Positions 27,814 through 47,122 of a DNA stretch of 64,000 nucleotides are shown here, piece after piece. The notes beneath the pieces were generated by a model. That model searched no databases. It had not been told where the DNA came from and saw only the letters and a list, made by a program, of their open reading frames with translations. Source of the stretch: an uncultured Planctomycetia bacterium (GTDB taxonomy: Bacteria; Omnitrophota; Gorgyraeia; VGKH01; JBHPFN01); NCBI GenBank assembly GCA_964406665.1, contig CAYOSQ010000001.1:199412-263411 (forward strand). Reading direction: 5' to 3'. Each line of letters begins with the position of its first letter. The first letter of the stretch is position 1. The translations under genes and the position numbers were made by a program.

Positions 27814-29352
27814 ATGAAAAAGCCACTTGTTGGAATTTGTATATTTCTTTGTTTGGGCATCTGGTTAGCTAAATACATACCAATACCGCAGTATATTCTG
27901 TTTATTTCTGCTTTTATCTTACCGATTTTGACTTTTATTATGTTAAGGCATAACAGAAGAATTTCCACAGCCTTTTTATGGTTGTGCTTTTTTGTTTTAG
28001 GGGCTTTTTTGCTTAAGAATGCAGAAATGCTGCCAAGTAATCATATTAATAGATATATATCTAATAAAGGAAAGGCAGCATATCTTAAGGGAATTGTTGA
28101 TAACGATCCTGTTGAAAAAAGGTTACGTTATGGCAACAGGACAACTTGCATTTTGAATGCTTATAAGTTAGGGATTAATAATAGGGAATATGATGTCTGC
28201 GGTAAAGTTTTAGTAAACATATATCGCAGTGAGAATCTGGAATATGGAAATGAGGTATTACTTAAAGGTAAAATTTACAAACCGATGAGATTTCAGATAT
28301 CTGATAGACTAAATTATAGAGATTATTTAAAACAAAAAAATATATATGGAATCTTTAGTGTAAAAAAAGATATTCCGGTTACGATTTTAGGTCAGAGAAT
28401 AGAAAATCCTTTAAAGACATTTGCCTTTAAGCTGAAACGTAAAGTAAAAAATATATTTGTTGGTCATCTGCCTTTTTTGGAAGCTGCTTTTATGAAAGCC
28501 ATGTTTTTAGGTGAGCGTCAGGATATTCCTCAATTCTTGAAAGATGTATTTGCCCGTACTGGAACTGTTCATATTTTGGCTATTAGTGGTTTACATGTCG
28601 GGATAATAATTTTTATTATTCTGTTTTTTTTAAAGGCCGTTAGAATTCCACGCAAGACTCGTTTTGTTATTACTATGATGTTTTTAATAGTTTATGTTTT
28701 TATCACCGGAGCTAGGCCTTCAGTTATCCGCGCGGCAGTTATGGCGATGGTATTGTTAGGAGGTTATCTATTTGAAAGAGAGATAGATGTTTATAATTCT
28801 TTAGCAGCTGCCGCTCTGATGATTCTTTTGTATAATCCAAAGCAGTTGTTTGATATTGGTTTCCAACTTTCTTTTTTAAGTGTCATTTCGATAATATATT
28901 TATACCCACGTTTTGAAAAAAAGATGATTAAGCGCGAGTTTCCTGGTATTGTAAAATTCTTTATGAAGTGTTTTTGTGTATCTTCCGCGGCTTGGTTAGG
29001 TGTTGCTGGTTTGATTGCTTATTATTTTAACATCATTACACTTATTTCGGTCTTTGCCAATTTAATTATAGTGCCATTTATATCGGTAATTATTGCTTTA
29101 GGTCTTAGCTTTGTATTTTGCGGAGTTTTGTTGCCTAAAATTATTTTTATATTTGCTTTTCCACTTAAGCTATCTTTGTTTATTTTGGCAAAAACCGCCT
29201 ATGCGTTTAGTCTTATGCCCTTTGCTTATTTCTATACAGGTAGTTTTAATATAAGGTATGTTATTTTATATTATAGTCTGATAGTGTTTATATTTGGTTT
29301 TGGGAGGGTTCTTTTATTGACAAAGTCTTTCAAGTATGATAGACTCGCTTAA
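27814..29352 (+). CDS. comEC: ComEC/Rec2 DNA internalization channel protein (lacks the C-terminal metallo-beta-lactamase domain)
   Basis: Competence-domain motif …GERQDIPQFLKDVFARTGTVHILAISGLHVGII…. Polytopic membrane protein of 512 aa. Confidence 0.8.
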   Translation: MKKPLVGICIFLCLGIWLAKYIPIPQYILFISAFILPILTFIMLRHNRRISTAFLWLCFFVLGAFLLKNAEMLPSNHINRYISNKGKAAYLKGIVDNDPVEKRLRYGNRTTCILNAYKLGINNREYDVCGKVLVNIYRSENLEYGNEVLLKGKIYKPMRFQISDRLNYRDYLKQKNIYGIFSVKKDIPVTILGQRIENPLKTFAFKLKRKVKNIFVGHLPFLEAAFMKAMFLGERQDIPQFLKDVFARTGTVHILAISGLHVGIIIFIILFFLKAVRIPRKTRFVITMMFLIVYVFITGARPSVIRAAVMAMVLLGGYLFEREIDVYNSLAAAALMILLYNPKQLFDIGFQLSFLSVISIIYLYPRFEKKMIKREFPGIVKFFMKCFCVSSAAWLGVAGLIAYYFNIITLISVFANLIIVPFISVIIALGLSFVFCGVLLPKIIFIFAFPLKLSLFILAKTAYAFSLMPFAYFYTGSFNIRYVILYYSLIVFIFGFGRVLLLTKSFKYDRLA

Positions 29353-34899: not shown

Positions 34900-34956
34900 G
34901 GCAATAACATTATATATAATTAAGCATAAAGCGAAAAAATGCGAGGGAGGTTGATA

Positions 34957-36036
34957 ATGAATATAAAAGAATTCCTGTCAATTATGATTGATAAAAAATC
35001 TTCGGATATGTTCCTGCGAGCCGGAGGAATTCCCAGGCTTAGAATAGATGGCAAGATATGTCCTCTGGATACAAATGTTTTGACACCAGAACAGCTTGAT
35101 AAATTAGCAGAAGAGTTGATGAGCACCGATGATCAAAGGACTAAGTTTAAGGAAAACCTTGAGGTTGATTTTGCAATCTCTGTTCCTAAATTAGGCCGGT
35201 TTAGGGTAATTATTTTTATCCAAAGAGGTACTCCTTCGATAGTTATCAGACATGTCCTTGATGAATCTCGAACGTTTGAAGAATTAAATCTTCCTGGACA
35301 TCTGTTCAAGCAATTTGCCGCAGAGAACAGAGGTATTATTTTAGCAACAGGCCCTGCCGGAAGCGGTAAGTCAACTTCCATATCTAGTATGCTGGAGCAT
35401 ATAAACGAGAGTATGCAGAAGCATATTATCACAGTTGAAGACCCAATAGAGTTTATGTTCAAAGACAAAAAATCTATAATAAACCAAAGAGAATTAGGGC
35501 TTGATGTTCCCAGTTATCCGGAAGCATTGAGGCATTTTACTCTCCAGAGTCCGGATGTTATTTTTATTGGATTGATTAGAGATACAGAGACAATGAAAGC
35601 GGCAATATCTGCTGCAGAGATGGGTGTTATGGTTGTGTCAACCTTTCATACTGTGAACACTATGCAGACTATTGAGAGAATGATTAATTTCTTCCCTCCT
35701 TATCTGCATAATGAGGTAAAGATGCGTTTATCGCTTCTTTTGAAAGGTATCGTTTCTCTTAGATTAATTCCTAGAAAAGATGCCGCTGGAAGAATCCCGG
35801 CTTATGAATCTATGGTTTTAACTCCTAGTGTAGGAAGAATAATAAGAGAAGGTAAACTTTGGGAGATGAAGCGTTTCTTAGAAGAAGGCGAGATGTTTGG
35901 CATGCAGACATTCAACCAGTCTTTGGTTAAGCTTGTTAAGGATGGTAAGATTACCGAAGAAAGTGCTAGAGAATTTTCGGACAACAGGGATGAATTTGAG
36001 CTTGAGCTCAGAGGAATAAAGCGGATTGCAGGATAA
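34957..36036 (+). CDS. pilT: type IV pilus retraction ATPase PilT/PilU family
   Basis: Walker A …ATGPAGSGKSTS…, Asp box and His box regions. A GAGGGAGG RBS precedes the ATG at 34957. Confidence 0.85.
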   Translation: MNIKEFLSIMIDKKSSDMFLRAGGIPRLRIDGKICPLDTNVLTPEQLDKLAEELMSTDDQRTKFKENLEVDFAISVPKLGRFRVIIFIQRGTPSIVIRHVLDESRTFEELNLPGHLFKQFAAENRGIILATGPAGSGKSTSISSMLEHINESMQKHIITVEDPIEFMFKDKKSIINQRELGLDVPSYPEALRHFTLQSPDVIFIGLIRDTETMKAAISAAEMGVMVVSTFHTVNTMQTIERMINFFPPYLHNEVKMRLSLLLKGIVSLRLIPRKDAAGRIPAYESMVLTPSVGRIIREGKLWEMKRFLEEGEMFGMQTFNQSLVKLVKDGKITEESAREFSDNRDEFELELRGIKRIAG

Positions 36037-37171: not shown

Positions 37172-38272
37172 CTATTCTTTGTTTCTTAAAAGTATCGATT
37201 CTTTCAGAGTGAATTCTTGTATACCTAGAAGTGATTTGTGTCGGAAAGTAGCTTCTACAGAAAGCATATCACCATCGATTTCAAAATAGATTTCTTTAGC
37301 ATGATCTGCAATTAAAGAAATTCCATATTTGTCAATCTTGCTGCTACCACCAGCATAGGCATAGTCTGTAAAAGGAAGGAGTTTATGGAGTTTTCCGAAA
37401 GGTCCTTGTTCGTCTGGCTGGCTTGTATTAACTTCTTTGTTGTGTACTAGGTATCCTCCAGCATAGTAGGTGTGATAGGGATTAACCTCGAAATTATAAA
37501 CCAGCACATCTTCATCTACAAATTTAATATCAGCAATGAGTTCTTCTTGGTGAGTATCTTTTAATAGAGCATCGCCGATTTTAAGATCTTTAGCTTTTTT
37601 CCATTCGCCCTTTACGTAGAAGGGGTGTTCTCCCGTAACTTTGAGATGTCCATTAATTAAATAATATCCTTTTGTTTTGTTTTGCATAACTGCTTTTACT
37701 GTATCTTTTTGTTGTTTGTTGCAGGATTCATCAAAGGAAAGTACGGCATCTCCGACTTTAATTTCTTCAATAAGTTTAATTGTTCCGTCGGCCAAAAGTA
37801 TGGGTGTACCGGCAAGAAAGCAATGTCCAGAAGAACCAGAAGGTCTTTGGGTTAACCTCACCAGTTTATTCTTATAGTCGGGGGATAAAGCAACTTTAGG
37901 AACAAGGAGAAAGAAGTGGAGACCTTCTTGTCCATTGGCTCCCCATTTAATATCTCCATTTTCTTTAAAAATCGTATTAGCCTTAGGGTTATTTGTTATA
38001 ACCGGTACCTGGAAGGTTAACATCTCTCCTTCGTAATAGTTGTTATTCCAGTCGTTTAATGCAATTTTATCTGGGCTTGATGTGCGCAGTTCATTCATTA
38101 TTTTATTCATGGAATAGCGGGCACGCTGCTGAAGATTAATAGCAATTGTTCCTCGTAAGAAAGCGCTTCTGCCTGCTACAAAAAGAGCAAGACTAACAGC
38201 AACAATAACAATGGTGATAAGTATGCCGATCATTACTTCAGGTAGGGTAAAGCCCTTTTTTTTCATTATCAA
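37172..38272 (-). CDS. type IV pilin/pseudopilin-like protein with an internal Hint (bacterial intein-like, BIL) domain
   Basis: Class III signal MIMKKKG|FTLPEVMIGILI… (prepilin cleavage/N-methylation motif). Residues ~151-278 carry intein blocks: A CFLAGTPILLADGTIKLIEEIKVGD, B VTGEHPFYV, F/G VYNFEVNPYHTYYAGGYLVHN. Confidence 0.75.
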   Translation of the reverse strand: MIMKKKGFTLPEVMIGILITIVIVAVSLALFVAGRSAFLRGTIAINLQQRARYSMNKIMNELRTSSPDKIALNDWNNNYYEGEMLTFQVPVITNNPKANTIFKENGDIKWGANGQEGLHFFLLVPKVALSPDYKNKLVRLTQRPSGSSGHCFLAGTPILLADGTIKLIEEIKVGDAVLSFDESCNKQQKDTVKAVMQNKTKGYYLINGHLKVTGEHPFYVKGEWKKAKDLKIGDALLKDTHQEELIADIKFVDEDVLVYNFEVNPYHTYYAGGYLVHNKEVNTSQPDEQGPFGKLHKLLPFTDYAYAGGSSKIDKYGISLIADHAKEIYFEIDGDMLSVEATFRHKSLLGIQEFTLKESILLRNKE

Positions 38273-38314: not shown

Positions 38315-40258
38315 CTATTCAATTACAAAATGATATTTAGTAACTCCAGGATGCAGCACTTCGTCAGTAGGAGGTGCAAGATCAATGTAGGATGCTAAAT
38401 CTGATTTACCAGAAATCCAGGCAGAGTCAACAATCTGTATGCTGTCAGGTGCAAAAGGAGGTAGGTTGTCGAAATCGTCAAATCTTTCATCGTAAGTAAA
38501 TATTCTATTGGGAGCGGTGTACCATTGTCCGCAGCCGTTAGGGCCTTGATAAAGATTAGTATCAAATATTTGTATAAATGCTCCGTTAATAGTAAGATTG
38601 CGTTGATCTTCTCCGTCAAACCACCACCTTTCTAATAATTCAGGCCCACGTCCTTTAATCAAAGCAGCATTTATGGTCGTATCAAGAGCTGGCCGGTCGA
38701 TAAATCCGGATACGGTATCAGTATCATCCCAGCCTAAACGATAATTATTCGATAGTGCTACCAATGCATCTGAAATTAACATAACTATTTTCTTATCATC
38801 AGGATTATCTGGATTGTTAAAATCACCCTCTGAATAAATTATCTTATCCGTAACAATCGTAAGTCCTGTGTTTTCGCCACTGGCAGGATTAAATATTTCT
38901 TTAGAATTTCTAAGACCTACAGCCGGTGTATTAAAACTATCAGCAGGGAATTGATTATCTACATAGATTAGTCCATTATCAGGTATATTGTTAGGACAGG
39001 GTACGGTAGGCTCAATATCCTCTGCATTTTCTTTACATAGACAATTACATTGTCCTGCCAGAGCTTCCATGTCTACAACTACTTTAGCAGTATTTTTTCC
39101 TTCTCTTTTATCATAAAAAGTATTTTCAAAAGATATCGCTCCTGTTGCATAATCTATGCCTTCTGTTAAAGCATTGTCTTCGCTGTTGTAGAGTATGGTA
39201 TCTCCAAACTCGTTCATCACCACTGTTAATCCGGCATTTTCACCAAAGTATCCATCAGGTGCTATAGAGCCGATATCATATTGAGGAGTAGGTTCTACTC
39301 CGTGAGTACTATCTTGTACTATTCCGTTCCAGCGCTCTAAAGCTACGGTTTCCCAGTCGACAGGGACGAAAGCAACGCCATCATAGCGCTCTTGTCCATA
39401 ATAGGTACGAGCACCGTCTACTAATTCTTCCGGGACACTTGCGCTTGCATCATATAAGATACCCGAGTTAGAAGATGTTTTTATTTTCATAGGTAGCATT
39501 TTATCAAAATTATCCTGGTCATCAGGGTCGTATGAGACATAAACATCTGGCCATTGCCAGGTAGATTTATCAGCATCGTATGGATTCCAGTGATATATTT
39601 TACCTGCGGAATGAATAAAGTTAGATTTTATCCTAATGCCGGTTTCCCAGGGTATGCCATCAGGGGGAAGCCAGGGACCAAAATTTATATCGCCATTAGC
39701 AAAGATCCTTCCTTTTAGTTCTGAGAAATTACCAGTTATTCCCCAATCATCATGATCAAAAACGAGAAATTGTAAAAGAGGAGTTTTTGTTCTTTTAAGG
39801 GCTTTGTATATCTTTGGTCTGATGCTTGTGGATTGTGAGAATTCAGTTAGTTCGGTTAGTATGCCGTAATAAGCCGTTGCATTGTTAAAGCCATATTCAT
39901 CTACGGCTTGGGTATCGGTATCGCCAAAGGCAGCAATTCTAAAGATTGTTGAATGGGCCGCTGCTCCAGTAAATTCACCATCATCATAAATGAAATCGTG
40001 AGGCCAGGTGGCCCCAGCTGTTTTTAGATCCTCCTCAATTTCAGGATCATTAAAAATGGCTACTTTAAAGTCCTCTGCAGCTTTAACAGAAGCACCTTCT
40101 GCTAAATAGAAGGCTTGATCAAAAAACTTACTGTTTTCTAGGGAAAACCGTTCATTTATAACTACTGTGAAAAAAGCCAATGAGGTGACTATTAGGAATA
40201 CAGACACTGCTAGAGTGATGATAAGAGCTTGGCCTTTATGTTCATAAAATAATTTCAT
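38315..40258 (-). CDS. large PilX-N-domain protein (type IV pilus minor pilin / tip-associated-like)
   Basis: N-terminus MKLFYEHKGQALIITLAVSVFLIVTSLAFF… resembles the PilX N-terminal domain. A GAGGAG RBS 6 nt upstream of the ATG at 40258. A ~630-aa beta-rich ectodomain follows. Confidence 0.55.
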   Translation of the reverse strand: MKLFYEHKGQALIITLAVSVFLIVTSLAFFTVVINERFSLENSKFFDQAFYLAEGASVKAAEDFKVAIFNDPEIEEDLKTAGATWPHDFIYDDGEFTGAAAHSTIFRIAAFGDTDTQAVDEYGFNNATAYYGILTELTEFSQSTSIRPKIYKALKRTKTPLLQFLVFDHDDWGITGNFSELKGRIFANGDINFGPWLPPDGIPWETGIRIKSNFIHSAGKIYHWNPYDADKSTWQWPDVYVSYDPDDQDNFDKMLPMKIKTSSNSGILYDASASVPEELVDGARTYYGQERYDGVAFVPVDWETVALERWNGIVQDSTHGVEPTPQYDIGSIAPDGYFGENAGLTVVMNEFGDTILYNSEDNALTEGIDYATGAISFENTFYDKREGKNTAKVVVDMEALAGQCNCLCKENAEDIEPTVPCPNNIPDNGLIYVDNQFPADSFNTPAVGLRNSKEIFNPASGENTGLTIVTDKIIYSEGDFNNPDNPDDKKIVMLISDALVALSNNYRLGWDDTDTVSGFIDRPALDTTINAALIKGRGPELLERWWFDGEDQRNLTINGAFIQIFDTNLYQGPNGCGQWYTAPNRIFTYDERFDDFDNLPPFAPDSIQIVDSAWISGKSDLASYIDLAPPTDEVLHPGVTKYHFVIE

Positions 40259-40393: not shown

Positions 40394-40843
40394 TTATTTT
40401 TTTATGATAGTGCGAAGCGAGGTTTCTGTCTGGCCAGCAGGACCAAATCTATCCCAACTTACTGTTGCGGTTAGATTTAAGAATTCAGGGGGGTTATCAT
40501 GGTGTATAATTGTGATATGTTCATCAGTCAAGGTGTAGCCACCAATAAGCACATCATAAGGGTTGGAAGGGTTTAACGTAGGCCCATCAACGATGCCATC
40601 AGGGAAATAGTCGGTGAGCTCATAGGTGCCGGTTCCTGCTTCGGCACGGTTTAAAATCGACTCAATAATCTTTTTTGCGTGAGTCAACGCAATAGTTGTT
40701 TCTTTGGAAATTGTAATAAACCGCGTACAAAGAGTTATTTGGTGAATAACAGCAGTAAGGCCGATAACAATGATAAAAATTGCTATAAGTATCTCAATGA
40801 GAGTTAAAGCCTTGCTGTTAACTGCCTTTTTAAAATTTAACAT
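40394..40843 (-). CDS. prepilin-type N-terminal cleavage/methylation domain protein (minor pilin/pseudopilin)
   Basis: …KALTLIEILIAIFIIVIGLTAV… N-terminal pilin helix with Glu at +5. 149 aa. Confidence 0.7.
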   Translation of the reverse strand: MLNFKKAVNSKALTLIEILIAIFIIVIGLTAVIHQITLCTRFITISKETTIALTHAKKIIESILNRAEAGTGTYELTDYFPDGIVDGPTLNPSNPYDVLIGGYTLTDEHITIIHHDNPPEFLNLTATVSWDRFGPAGQTETSLRTIIKK

Positions 40844-45556: not shown

Positions 45557-47122
45557 ATGAAAAACTTTAAACTAAGCAATATTCCACGTTGGCATTTTTA
45601 TTCATTTTCCCTCGTAGCATTATTTTCTTTTTTACTTTCTTTTAAATGGAGTTTGACACCAACATTTATAGATATTTATTATCATCTTTCTGCAGTTCTG
45701 GGATTTGATGAAGCCGGAGGATTTGTTGCAACAGCATTTTGGGAAGCAGCTCCTTTTGGCAGGCCGCATCTGTACCCACCGTTTACACACTTCTTAATGC
45801 TTTTTTTGTTTAAAATAGGAATGCCCATACTTTCTGTTGCTCGCCTTTTTGAATATTGTATGTTTCCTATTTTGTTGATAACTATGTGGTATTTTATCAA
45901 AAGCTTTTGCTCAGATAGAGCGGCATTTTTCTCTGTATTGATTGCTTCTTCAGCATATTCATTTTATTTATCTTCTGTAAATTTCATACCAACCTCAGTT
46001 GCGATAGTGTTGGGACTTTTAGCTTTTTTATGTTTAGAAAAAGATAAAATTATTGCCGCTGCTATTTTGTTGGGTTTATGTTTTTATGCTCACGTAGGTG
46101 TGCCGTGGATTTTTCTAGGAAGTTTTTGTGTTTATGGATTATTTAACTCTCTTCGCTTAAAAAGCTGTTTGAAAGTTGCTGGCTTTGGCCTATTGCTTGC
46201 ATTACCGATATTGGTTTTTCAGTATAATCTTAGAGAGTATTTAAGCATAAGGCAAAACATTGAGTCATTCATTCTGGAAATCAATCTATGGATTTATTTA
46301 GCTGCGATACCGGGAATTTTTATAGCAATTAAGCGACGAGGCAGCTATTTATTTATTCCGTCATTTTTGATATTTAGTATGATGCCGTTGATAATAGGTT
46401 ACTATTATCGAACTCTATCAGGGCAGGGAATTATAGCTTTTATTTTCTTATCAGCAATAAGTCTTGATTCTATTTTTGCCAGGATGTCAAAATCACTAAT
46501 AAGTTATTTTAAGAACAAAAATGAGAGATGTTTAAAACACTTGTTGCTTTTGTTTATTTTTGTATTCTTTTTTGTTTTTTCACCTTCAATCGTGATTCAG
46601 AACGATGAAAAAAAACTATGTTTTGTAAACTCTACGTATGTTAATTTAGTTCCAGAGTTTAAAACACTATATAGGCCTAATGAGTTCTCAATATACTTTC
46701 CTAAGTTTTTCAAAGACATCTCAGATATCGTTGGAAAATATTCTCAGGAAGGTGATATAATATACTGTAATCAAGATTATGTCGGAGGATTGATCTCTGT
46801 TTTAACACGCAGGGCAACTTCTAATGTTATGTTGCAGGAAATCAGAACAAATAATTTAGCCGATCCTGCAAAAGATGCTAAAATTATCATCTGGATGAAA
46901 GATCCGGATAGAAAAATTGATTTAGAAATGTTATCTTTCTTAGATAGGTATGATTTAAATATAATTGTAGAGACAGATTTAGCATATATTTATTTGAATG
47001 ATCATACCCGGGCTAAAAGAATAGTCGCTGAGCCTAAAATCTCCAGCAGTCTAGTTTTTGTAATATTATTTCTGTTGTTTAGTATCTGTTTGTTTGATAT
47101 TTTCAGGAAACGTAAATCATAA
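45557..47122 (+). CDS. hypothetical polytopic membrane protein (possible GT-C-type glycosyltransferase-like fold; unassigned)
   Basis: 521 aa with >10 predicted TM segments, then a soluble C-terminal region and a final TM. No diagnostic motif recognised. Confidence 0.5.
   Translation: MKNFKLSNIPRWHFYSFSLVALFSFLLSFKWSLTPTFIDIYYHLSAVLGFDEAGGFVATAFWEAAPFGRPHLYPPFTHFLMLFLFKIGMPILSVARLFEYCMFPILLITMWYFIKSFCSDRAAFFSVLIASSAYSFYLSSVNFIPTSVAIVLGLLAFLCLEKDKIIAAAILLGLCFYAHVGVPWIFLGSFCVYGLFNSLRLKSCLKVAGFGLLLALPILVFQYNLREYLSIRQNIESFILEINLWIYLAAIPGIFIAIKRRGSYLFIPSFLIFSMMPLIIGYYYRTLSGQGIIAFIFLSAISLDSIFARMSKSLISYFKNKNERCLKHLLLLFIFVFFFVFSPSIVIQNDEKKLCFVNSTYVNLVPEFKTLYRPNEFSIYFPKFFKDISDIVGKYSQEGDIIYCNQDYVGGLISVLTRRATSNVMLQEIRTNNLADPAKDAKIIIWMKDPDRKIDLEMLSFLDRYDLNIIVETDLAYIYLNDHTRAKRIVAEPKISSSLVFVILFLLFSICLFDIFRKRKS

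Follow-up and report, generated by a model that had tools for sequence, protein, structure and literature searches.

In this study, we analysed a stretch of 64,000 nt from an uncultured bacterium assigned to the Omnitrophota (contig CAYOSQ010000001.1 of assembly GCA_964406665.1, positions 199,412 to 263,411 of the forward strand; hereafter the window), which carries a gene for a type IV pilin-class protein with an internal Hint domain of the bacterial intein-like (BIL) kind. The gene is the last of a three-gene operon on the minus strand, and the parts of its product are listed in Table 1. The open reading frame extends over 37172..38272 on the minus strand; its start codon is almost certainly the ATG at 38266, because an AAGAGG ribosome-binding site is located 6 nt upstream and the public database version of the protein (P0001) has 364 aa. 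The coordinates 37439-37822 given for the Hint domain in an earlier, purely sequence-based description of this DNA (the original prediction) coincide exactly with Cys149 to Asn276, while its residue numbers 151-278 are too high by two if the likely start is used. At least 14 contigs encode an identical protein, and because the places shown, six in number, represent six different samples, an assembly artefact is excluded. The samples carrying this gene are marine.

The N-terminus of the protein has the textbook form of a class III signal, MKKKG/FTLPEVMIGILITIV, with Gly at position -1, Phe at +1 and Glu at +5 (MKKKG/FTLPE). The N_methyl profiles scored below their cutoffs (PF07963, Table 1; TIGR02532, 12.3 vs 16.3 bits), and a profile of the protein family matched the alpha1 helices of solved pilins in the PDB with E=2e-5. 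With the class III signal present and this match to pilin helices, the protein is type IV pilin- or pseudopilin-like, as had been proposed. It has the pilin fold of the GspJ type, i.e. an alpha1 helix followed by a two-sheet beta domain. None of the GspJ or PilW models of Pfam and NCBIfam matched the window pilin at E<=1; its relative P0127 is named 'PilW family protein' by NCBI. Pilins of the GspJ/PilW class are components of the priming or tip complex in type IV pili and type II pseudopili. The host protein is a GspJ/PilW-class minor pilin, and the Hint is located in a single surface loop of its beta-sheet domain. This loop is hypervariable and separates the strand KLVRL from the final four strands. 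The protein is predicted to be cleaved by prepilin peptidase and may be incorporated into a filament tip complex; its operon context consists of a PilV/GspI-like gene and the gene of a large partner, with PilT close by.

The domain in this loop was matched by the Pfam family PT-HINT (PF07591) with 75.3 bits (cutoff 27.7, E=7.4e-21) and more weakly by Vint, Intein_splicing, Hom_end_hint and Hint. Using phmmer, the BIL domain of Clostridium thermocellum (2LWY) was matched with E=5e-16, and the sequence of blocks F and G, VYNFEV..H.Y..G..LVHN, is a close match to 2LWY. The profile search recommended with the original prediction thus confirms the Hint. The splicing blocks read from the sequence at that time are all present, with SGH/CFLAGTPILLADG at the N-terminal junction, VTGEHPFYV, and VYNFEV...YYAGGYLVHN followed by Lys, so that the mini-Hint is complete. 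Its catalytic residues are Cys149, Thr211-x-x-His214, His265 and His275-Asn276, and no homing endonuclease domain was found in the Hint. Type A BILs end in His-Asn as inteins do, which sets them apart from type B BILs, and they do so without a nucleophile at the +1 position (PMC4031507). The window domain has the Hint fold of the type A BIL/PT-HINT group, and judged by its sequence it is closest to the type A BILs and has every sequence feature of this type. Since the +1 residue of the C-extein is Lys277 and not a nucleophile (Cys, Ser or Thr), canonical class 1 splicing is impossible; the expectation that such splicing is unlikely and that BIL-type chemistry is the apt comparison holds.

A search with the whole protein yielded full-length relatives of 365-441 aa, and those with a named source all derive from Candidatus Omnitrophota. 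The Hint was then cut from nine members, the remainders were aligned (A2) and the search was repeated. The Hint-deleted profile recovered Hint-less proteins aligning on both flanks of the insertion, namely P0127 (201 aa, from a Candidatus Omnitrophota bacterium), P0121 (244 aa), P0124 (266 aa) and P0126 (293 aa). Over the extein columns, P0127 is the closest relative of the window protein with 39% identity. Its locus shows the gene order of the window: MurJ, UvrC, an MGMT-like gene, PilT and PrfB are followed by the convergent pilin gene, a gene for a protein of 704 aa and a small open reading frame upstream. By this synteny, P0127 is the positional orthologue without the insert. The C-terminal 88 aa of the window protein, for which no Pfam match was obtained, align with the final strands of Hint-less pilins including the conserved ..LRN strand and were modelled within the pilin sheet. 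Because both flanks match Hint-less pilins, these 88 residues are no independent domain. They consist of a disordered linker, with a predicted local distance difference test score (pLDDT) below 50 for residues 279-312 in the AlphaFold2 (AF2) model, and of the last four pilin strands (residues 317-321, 323-331, 334-345 and 348-359; pLDDT about 90). An amphipathic motif, 'GP.GKLF..IF....AFA', is found just past the Hint position; it is kept in many Hint-less members and not in the minimal ones of about 200 aa such as P0127, and AF2 confidence for it is low.

These alignments also bear on the idea that the pilus carries a toxin at the pilin's C-terminus which is freed by the PT-HINT domain, following the logic of polymorphic toxins. 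Such a function is called to mind by the Pfam family itself and by the name 'polymorphic toxin-type HINT domain-containing protein' that NCBI gives to relatives, but the part to be released has no Pfam match and was aligned and modelled as pilin strands, and there is no immunity-like gene downstream, where the next gene is the convergent prfB, 25 nt away. With a C-extein homologous to pilin strands, no match to a toxin domain and no immunity gene, the toxin-cargo explanation was rejected as highly improbable.

Table 1. Parts of the Hint-bearing pilin gene and of its surroundings in the 64,000-nt window.
Feature	Position	Strand	Evidence or remark
Whole gene, 364-aa minor pilin with internal Hint	37172..38266	(-)	stop codon included; ATG 38266 likely start
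Class III (prepilin) leader MKKKG, predicted prepilin-peptidase site G5/F6	38252..38266	(-)	sequence; N_methyl (PF07963) 20.3 bits, cutoff 21.2; E10 nearly invariant in family
Pilin alpha1 helix, residues 6-60, N-terminal half hydrophobic, rest amphipathic	38087..38251	(-)	AF2 helix 8-60; profile match to solved pilin helices E=2e-5
N-extein portion of pilin beta-sheet domain, residues 61-148, ending with conserved strand KLVRL and short linker RPSGSSGH	37823..38086	(-)	
128-aa Hint / type A bacterial intein-like domain (PT-HINT), Cys149..Asn276	37439..37822	(-)	
Post-Hint linker, residues 277-316, first residue +1 Lys277; predicted disordered; holds family-conserved motif GPFGKLHKLLPFTDYAYA ('KLF..F...AFA')	37319..37438	(-)	
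C-extein core, last four pilin beta-strands, residues 317-364, end ...ILLRN-KE	37175..37318	(-)	AF2; alignment to Hint-less pilin C-termini
647-aa partner (664 aa from upstream GTG), hydrophobic N-terminus, middle operon gene	38315..40258	(-)	conserved adjacency to Hint-pilins and Hint-less orthologue
149-aa PilV/GspI-like minor pilin, first operon gene	40394..40843	(-)	N_methyl 21.7 bits (cutoff 21.2); TIGR02523 PilV 29 bits, below cutoff
PilT-like T2SSE ATPase, 1.1 kb from operon	34939..36036	(+)	position conserved in syntenic locus L003

For a census of the family, a profile built from four Hint-less members (A5) was searched against 1.84 billion cluster representatives, which gave 108 proteins at E<=1e-10, and a hidden Markov model of the Hint was applied to the 40 best-scoring representatives among them. 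A Hint was detected in 18 of these 40, in one to three copies each, and was absent from the other 22; all named sources among the 40 are Omnitrophota. The survey for pilin-Hint fusions in relatives that had been suggested was thus positive. The position of the Hint is constant: the conserved strand K-L-I/V-R-L comes first, next a spacer of variable kind (either poly-Gly or a Cys-rich mini-module) and then the Hint, which precedes the conserved motif 'KLF..F...AFA' and the final strands. The loop itself is hypervariable in length and content and tolerates Cys-rich knots as well as poly-Gly. In P0007, P0017, P0008, P0123, P0137, P0153 and P0169, a variable number of Cys-rich mini-modules (e.g. 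YCGDGxCxxxExxxxCxxDCGxC), which are probably disulfide-knotted spacers, is located ahead of the Hint, while the spacer of the window protein consists of RPSGSSGH only.

Within this variable loop, the active site is strongly conserved. Among family members with a single Hint, Cys1, Thr63, His66 and His117 are present in 20/20 and the terminal His-Asn in 19/20, the sole exception being P0017, which ends in VATD and retains Cys1 and TxxH. All 29 tabulated full-length Hint domains begin with Cys and end with His-Asn. The residue following them is Lys in 24 cases, Arg in two, and Gly, Val and Ser in one each; Cys or Thr was never found, so that a +1 nucleophile as in class 1 inteins occurs in a single family Hint (Ser, 1/29). 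Tandem Hints are present in P0155 (three) and in P0002 and P0004 (two each), and every copy keeps Cys1 and His-Asn. These data have to be considered for the view that the Hint is not processed at all and stays in the mature pilin, e.g. as a binding domain, with its catalytic motifs being evolutionary leftovers. Pilins of modular build, with domains grafted on or inserted, are widespread, and GspK has such a domain within its beta-sheet (PMC8179133); and the long disordered loop accepts many inserts including Cys-rich knots and poly-Gly. However, the catalytic residues are invariant in pilins that are only about 33% identical to each other (Hint 53%) and are retained in each of the tandem copies (Cys1 and His-Asn), which is not expected of a purely structural domain, and a displayed module without processing therefore appears quite unlikely.

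The Hint looks, from the sequence comparisons, like an old insert that was mostly inherited vertically and lost repeatedly and is not recently mobile. Average identity is 53% for the Hints and 33% for the host pilins, the divergence of Hint and extein is positively correlated (Mantel r=0.50, p=2e-4), and the GC content of the Hint, overall and at third codon positions (GC3), is equal to that of the host gene. A recent horizontal import of the Hint, which was considered as well, found no support, given the matching GC and GC3 and the correlated divergence. The insert is also found in paralogous pilins. The genome of the window contains a paralogue, P0008, adjoining a 923-aa protein; in other Omnitrophota genomes, two paralogous pilins of the family lie on either side of a protein of about 710 aa. 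At one such locus (L001, 6001-10513; 710-aa protein) both carry a Hint; at another (L006, 8001-12055) the second pilin (250 aa) has no Hint, with the Cys-rich spacer and also the AFA motif retained.

A scan of genome contigs with the Hint motif gave matches of which those listed are mostly PT-HINT domains of many phyla (Streptomyces, cyanobacteria, archaea). In L014, a metagenome-assembled genome (MAG) of Candidatus Dadabacteria, and L013, a MAG of Planctomycetota, the tblastn matches continue beyond the Hint on its upstream side and reach into query residues 88-148 and 125-148, respectively; pilin-Hint fusions may thus exist outside the Omnitrophota. A separate non-pilin family (P0005, P0006, P0016 and P0018) has two or three tandem BILs starting near the N-terminus and separated by 'HNKG/C' or 'HNKGGG/C' only; after these come a linker rich in Ser, the conserved stretch 'GYTPRFTNGY..P.GSVVYY' and a transmembrane helix at the C-terminus.

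By analogy with characterised BILs, the Hint of the window pilin probably acts as a type A BIL which, after export, forms an N-terminal thioester and cyclises Asn276, so that it is excised and a spliced or nicked pilin is left. In type A BILs, a branched intermediate is impossible; splicing can proceed via attack on the N-terminal thioester by the amino group freed on Asn cyclisation, but cleavage products dominate (PMC4031507). For the window protein, the order of events would be as follows: Sec would insert the precursor, prepilin peptidase would process it to a calculated mass of 40.3 kDa, and the Hint would fold on the periplasmic side. An N-S acyl shift by Cys149 would convert the peptide bond His148-Cys149 into a thioester, and cyclisation of Asn276 would cut the bond Asn276-Lys277; no branched intermediate could be formed, because Cys, Ser and Thr are missing at +1. 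The thioester would then either be hydrolysed, giving a nicked pilin of two chains (15.9 and 9.9 kDa) whose halves are joined through their common beta-sheet, or undergo attack by the amino group that has become free on Lys277, giving a spliced pilin of 25.9 kDa. By either route, the 14.5-kDa Hint would be shed and the mature pilin would be like the Hint-less orthologues. As both products would resemble these orthologues, presence and absence of the Hint would both be viable. We lean slightly towards a selected role of the Hint, as a step of maturation or timing for the cell, rather than towards a tolerated passenger that removes itself, because its conservation exceeds that of its host, it lacks a homing endonuclease, and it occurs in tandem and in two paralogous pilins.

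Several points weigh against excision. The occurrence and the products of processing in this family are taken over from other BILs, and an unprocessed Hint might be tolerable in the disordered hypervariable loop, like the extra modules of other modular pilins. Cys1 could be affected by the oxidising periplasm. Furthermore, P0017 has Cys1 and TxxH without the C-terminal His-Asn, and in P0003, P0027, P0059 and P0169 the Hint is located at the extreme C-terminus with nearly no C-extein left. Together, P0017 and the relatives with C-terminal Hints imply that the N-terminal thioester, and not excision, may be the selected activity. Including P0033 and P0003 with its two Hints, C-terminal-Hint pilins (P0003, P0027, P0033, P0059 and P0169) have tails of only 6-21 aa. 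P0003 and P0275 (639-647 aa) have an uninterrupted complete pilin domain followed by two C-terminal Hints, which are split by Cys-rich spacers, and a tail of 13 aa; with the pilin domain uninterrupted, excision of the Hint in P0003 cannot restore the host fold. In P0169 (359 aa), 11 residues follow the Hint and the last pilin strands are apparently missing, which could reflect a truncated gene call or a genuinely different architecture.

The same proteins provide arguments for an ATP-independent conjugation module acting outside the cytoplasm, in which the Hint forms a thioester where the N-extein ends, in relatives frequently with a tail of poly-Gly, and the epsilon-amine of a lysine resolves it. 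The acceptor could be the conserved +1 Lys, leading to an isopeptide-bridged pilin, or it could belong to a second protein, such as the partner of 647 aa, a further tip pilin or a surface protein of a host or prey, leading to a covalently cross-linked tip complex or to covalent adhesion. The predominance of Lys at +1 (24/29) and the retention of Cys1 and TxxH in P0017 even without His-Asn would fit, and for the five pilins with short tails only chemistry at the N-terminal junction makes sense. GspJ-class pilins are located at filament tips (PMC8179133), and genes for type IVa pili are among the symbiosis-related traits listed for Omnitrophota (PMC10066038). However, Lys or Arg is also found at +1 in 45 of 85 non-pilin PT-HINT proteins from the same search and may thus be a habit of the subfamily, the Hint-less orthologues evidently work without a Hint, and the proposal is inferred throughout, with candidate acceptors only. 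We therefore regard conjugation as unlikely and continue to favour excision by type A BIL chemistry.

In Hedgehog proteins, the corresponding thioester is resolved with cholesterol. The best structural match of the window Hint is BIL2 of Tetrahymena, for which the providers of its structure described formation of an isopeptide bond to the epsilon-amine of a lysine and conjugation of the N-extein to other substrates (PMC8616854). Conjugation by the window protein would be analogous to this 'ubiquitin dispensing' and to the cholesteroylation of Hedgehog. However, the BUBL BIL2 of Tetrahymena thermophila (6TMM/6Y75) is eukaryotic and cytosolic with ubiquitin-like flanks, whereas the window protein has no ubiquitin-like flank and conjugation is conjectural here. 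Unlike known type A BILs (2LWY; PF07591), the window Hint has a protein of the type IV pilin class as its host, in which it splits one folded beta-sheet domain. Canonical mini-inteins share with it the Hint fold, blocks A, B, F and G, the insertion within a folded host domain and the presence/absence polymorphism among orthologues; the domain described here differs in the missing Cys, Ser or Thr at +1, the lack of a homing endonuclease and the tandem copies. The insertion sites differ, too, as canonical inteins sit at conserved functional sites and the Hint sits in a hypervariable loop, predicted to be disordered, of a non-essential exported protein.

The GspJ/EpsJ/XcpW and PilW-type pilins of known structure (2RET, 3CI0, 3NJE and TTHA1219 of T. 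thermophilus, 5G23) show 9-14% identity to the window pilin, and none of them has been described with an autoprocessing insert. Modular type IV pilins such as PilB and PilC of S. sanguinis and GspK with its inserted alpha-domain likewise have a module grafted onto or into the pilin scaffold, presumably displayed at the tip. Their modules are binding domains that remain attached, whereas the module of the window pilin is a putative autoprocessing enzyme of single turnover, for which either self-removal or activation of the pilin's own backbone is predicted. Full-text literature searches combining BIL, Hint or PT-HINT with pilins, and Omnitrophota with pilin or intein, gave no description of Hint-bearing pilins. 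The sole trace in the literature searched is an uncommented row in Dataset S1 of PMC8179133, which lists the architecture IPR012902 - PF07591 for one protein. BIL/PT-HINT domains, minor pilins of the GspJ class and pilins of modular build are each known; their combination is essentially undescribed in this literature.

Regarding the neighbouring genes (Table 1), the operon had been proposed to encode two further minor pilins. This applies to the 149-aa protein, which is PilV/GspI-like with matches to PilV, GspI and ComGE that are all below threshold. For the 647-aa protein the label 'PilX-N' could not be maintained, since no match was obtained in Pfam and NCBIfam with the full protein, in Pfam with the N-terminal 113 aa or in the PDB with a five-sequence profile. 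Its hydrophobic N-terminus and its conserved adjacency suggest a pilus-associated role, and a PilX/GspK-like nature is only inferred from them. The genes for ComEC, LptE, BamD-like, LpxL-like and Lnt proteins in the window indicate the chromosome of a diderm bacterium. Less than 10 kb from the minor-pilin operon, a ComEC gene (Competence and DUF4131 domains; 27814-29352, plus strand) and the PilT-like ATPase gene are present; the filament could be a DNA-uptake pilus. A 521-aa open reading frame (45557-47122, plus strand) between the Lnt-like and cation-efflux genes had no Pfam match at E<=0.001.

To our knowledge, the biological purpose of type A BILs is still unclear. The family described here offers a natural experiment, in which the same minor pilin occurs without a Hint or with one, two or three copies of it in a single loop; both the location of the host protein (the tip of the filament or the priming complex) and its set of partners are defined. 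Mundane self-removal is the most likely outcome. If simple excision is true, the Hint would be, as far as the literature searched shows, the first intein-like element described in a subunit of type IV filaments, and one that interrupts a single beta-sheet domain outside the cytoplasm. If conjugation is true, covalent chemistry would be added to type IV pili, and this could explain how the ultra-small, probably host-dependent Omnitrophota attach to their partners. Compact BILs that are active outside the cytoplasm and do without a +1 nucleophile would also be attractive tools for protein ligation. The case is conserved and experimentally tractable, and it bears both on the function of BILs and, for a phylum that probably depends on hosts, on the biology of type IV filament tips.
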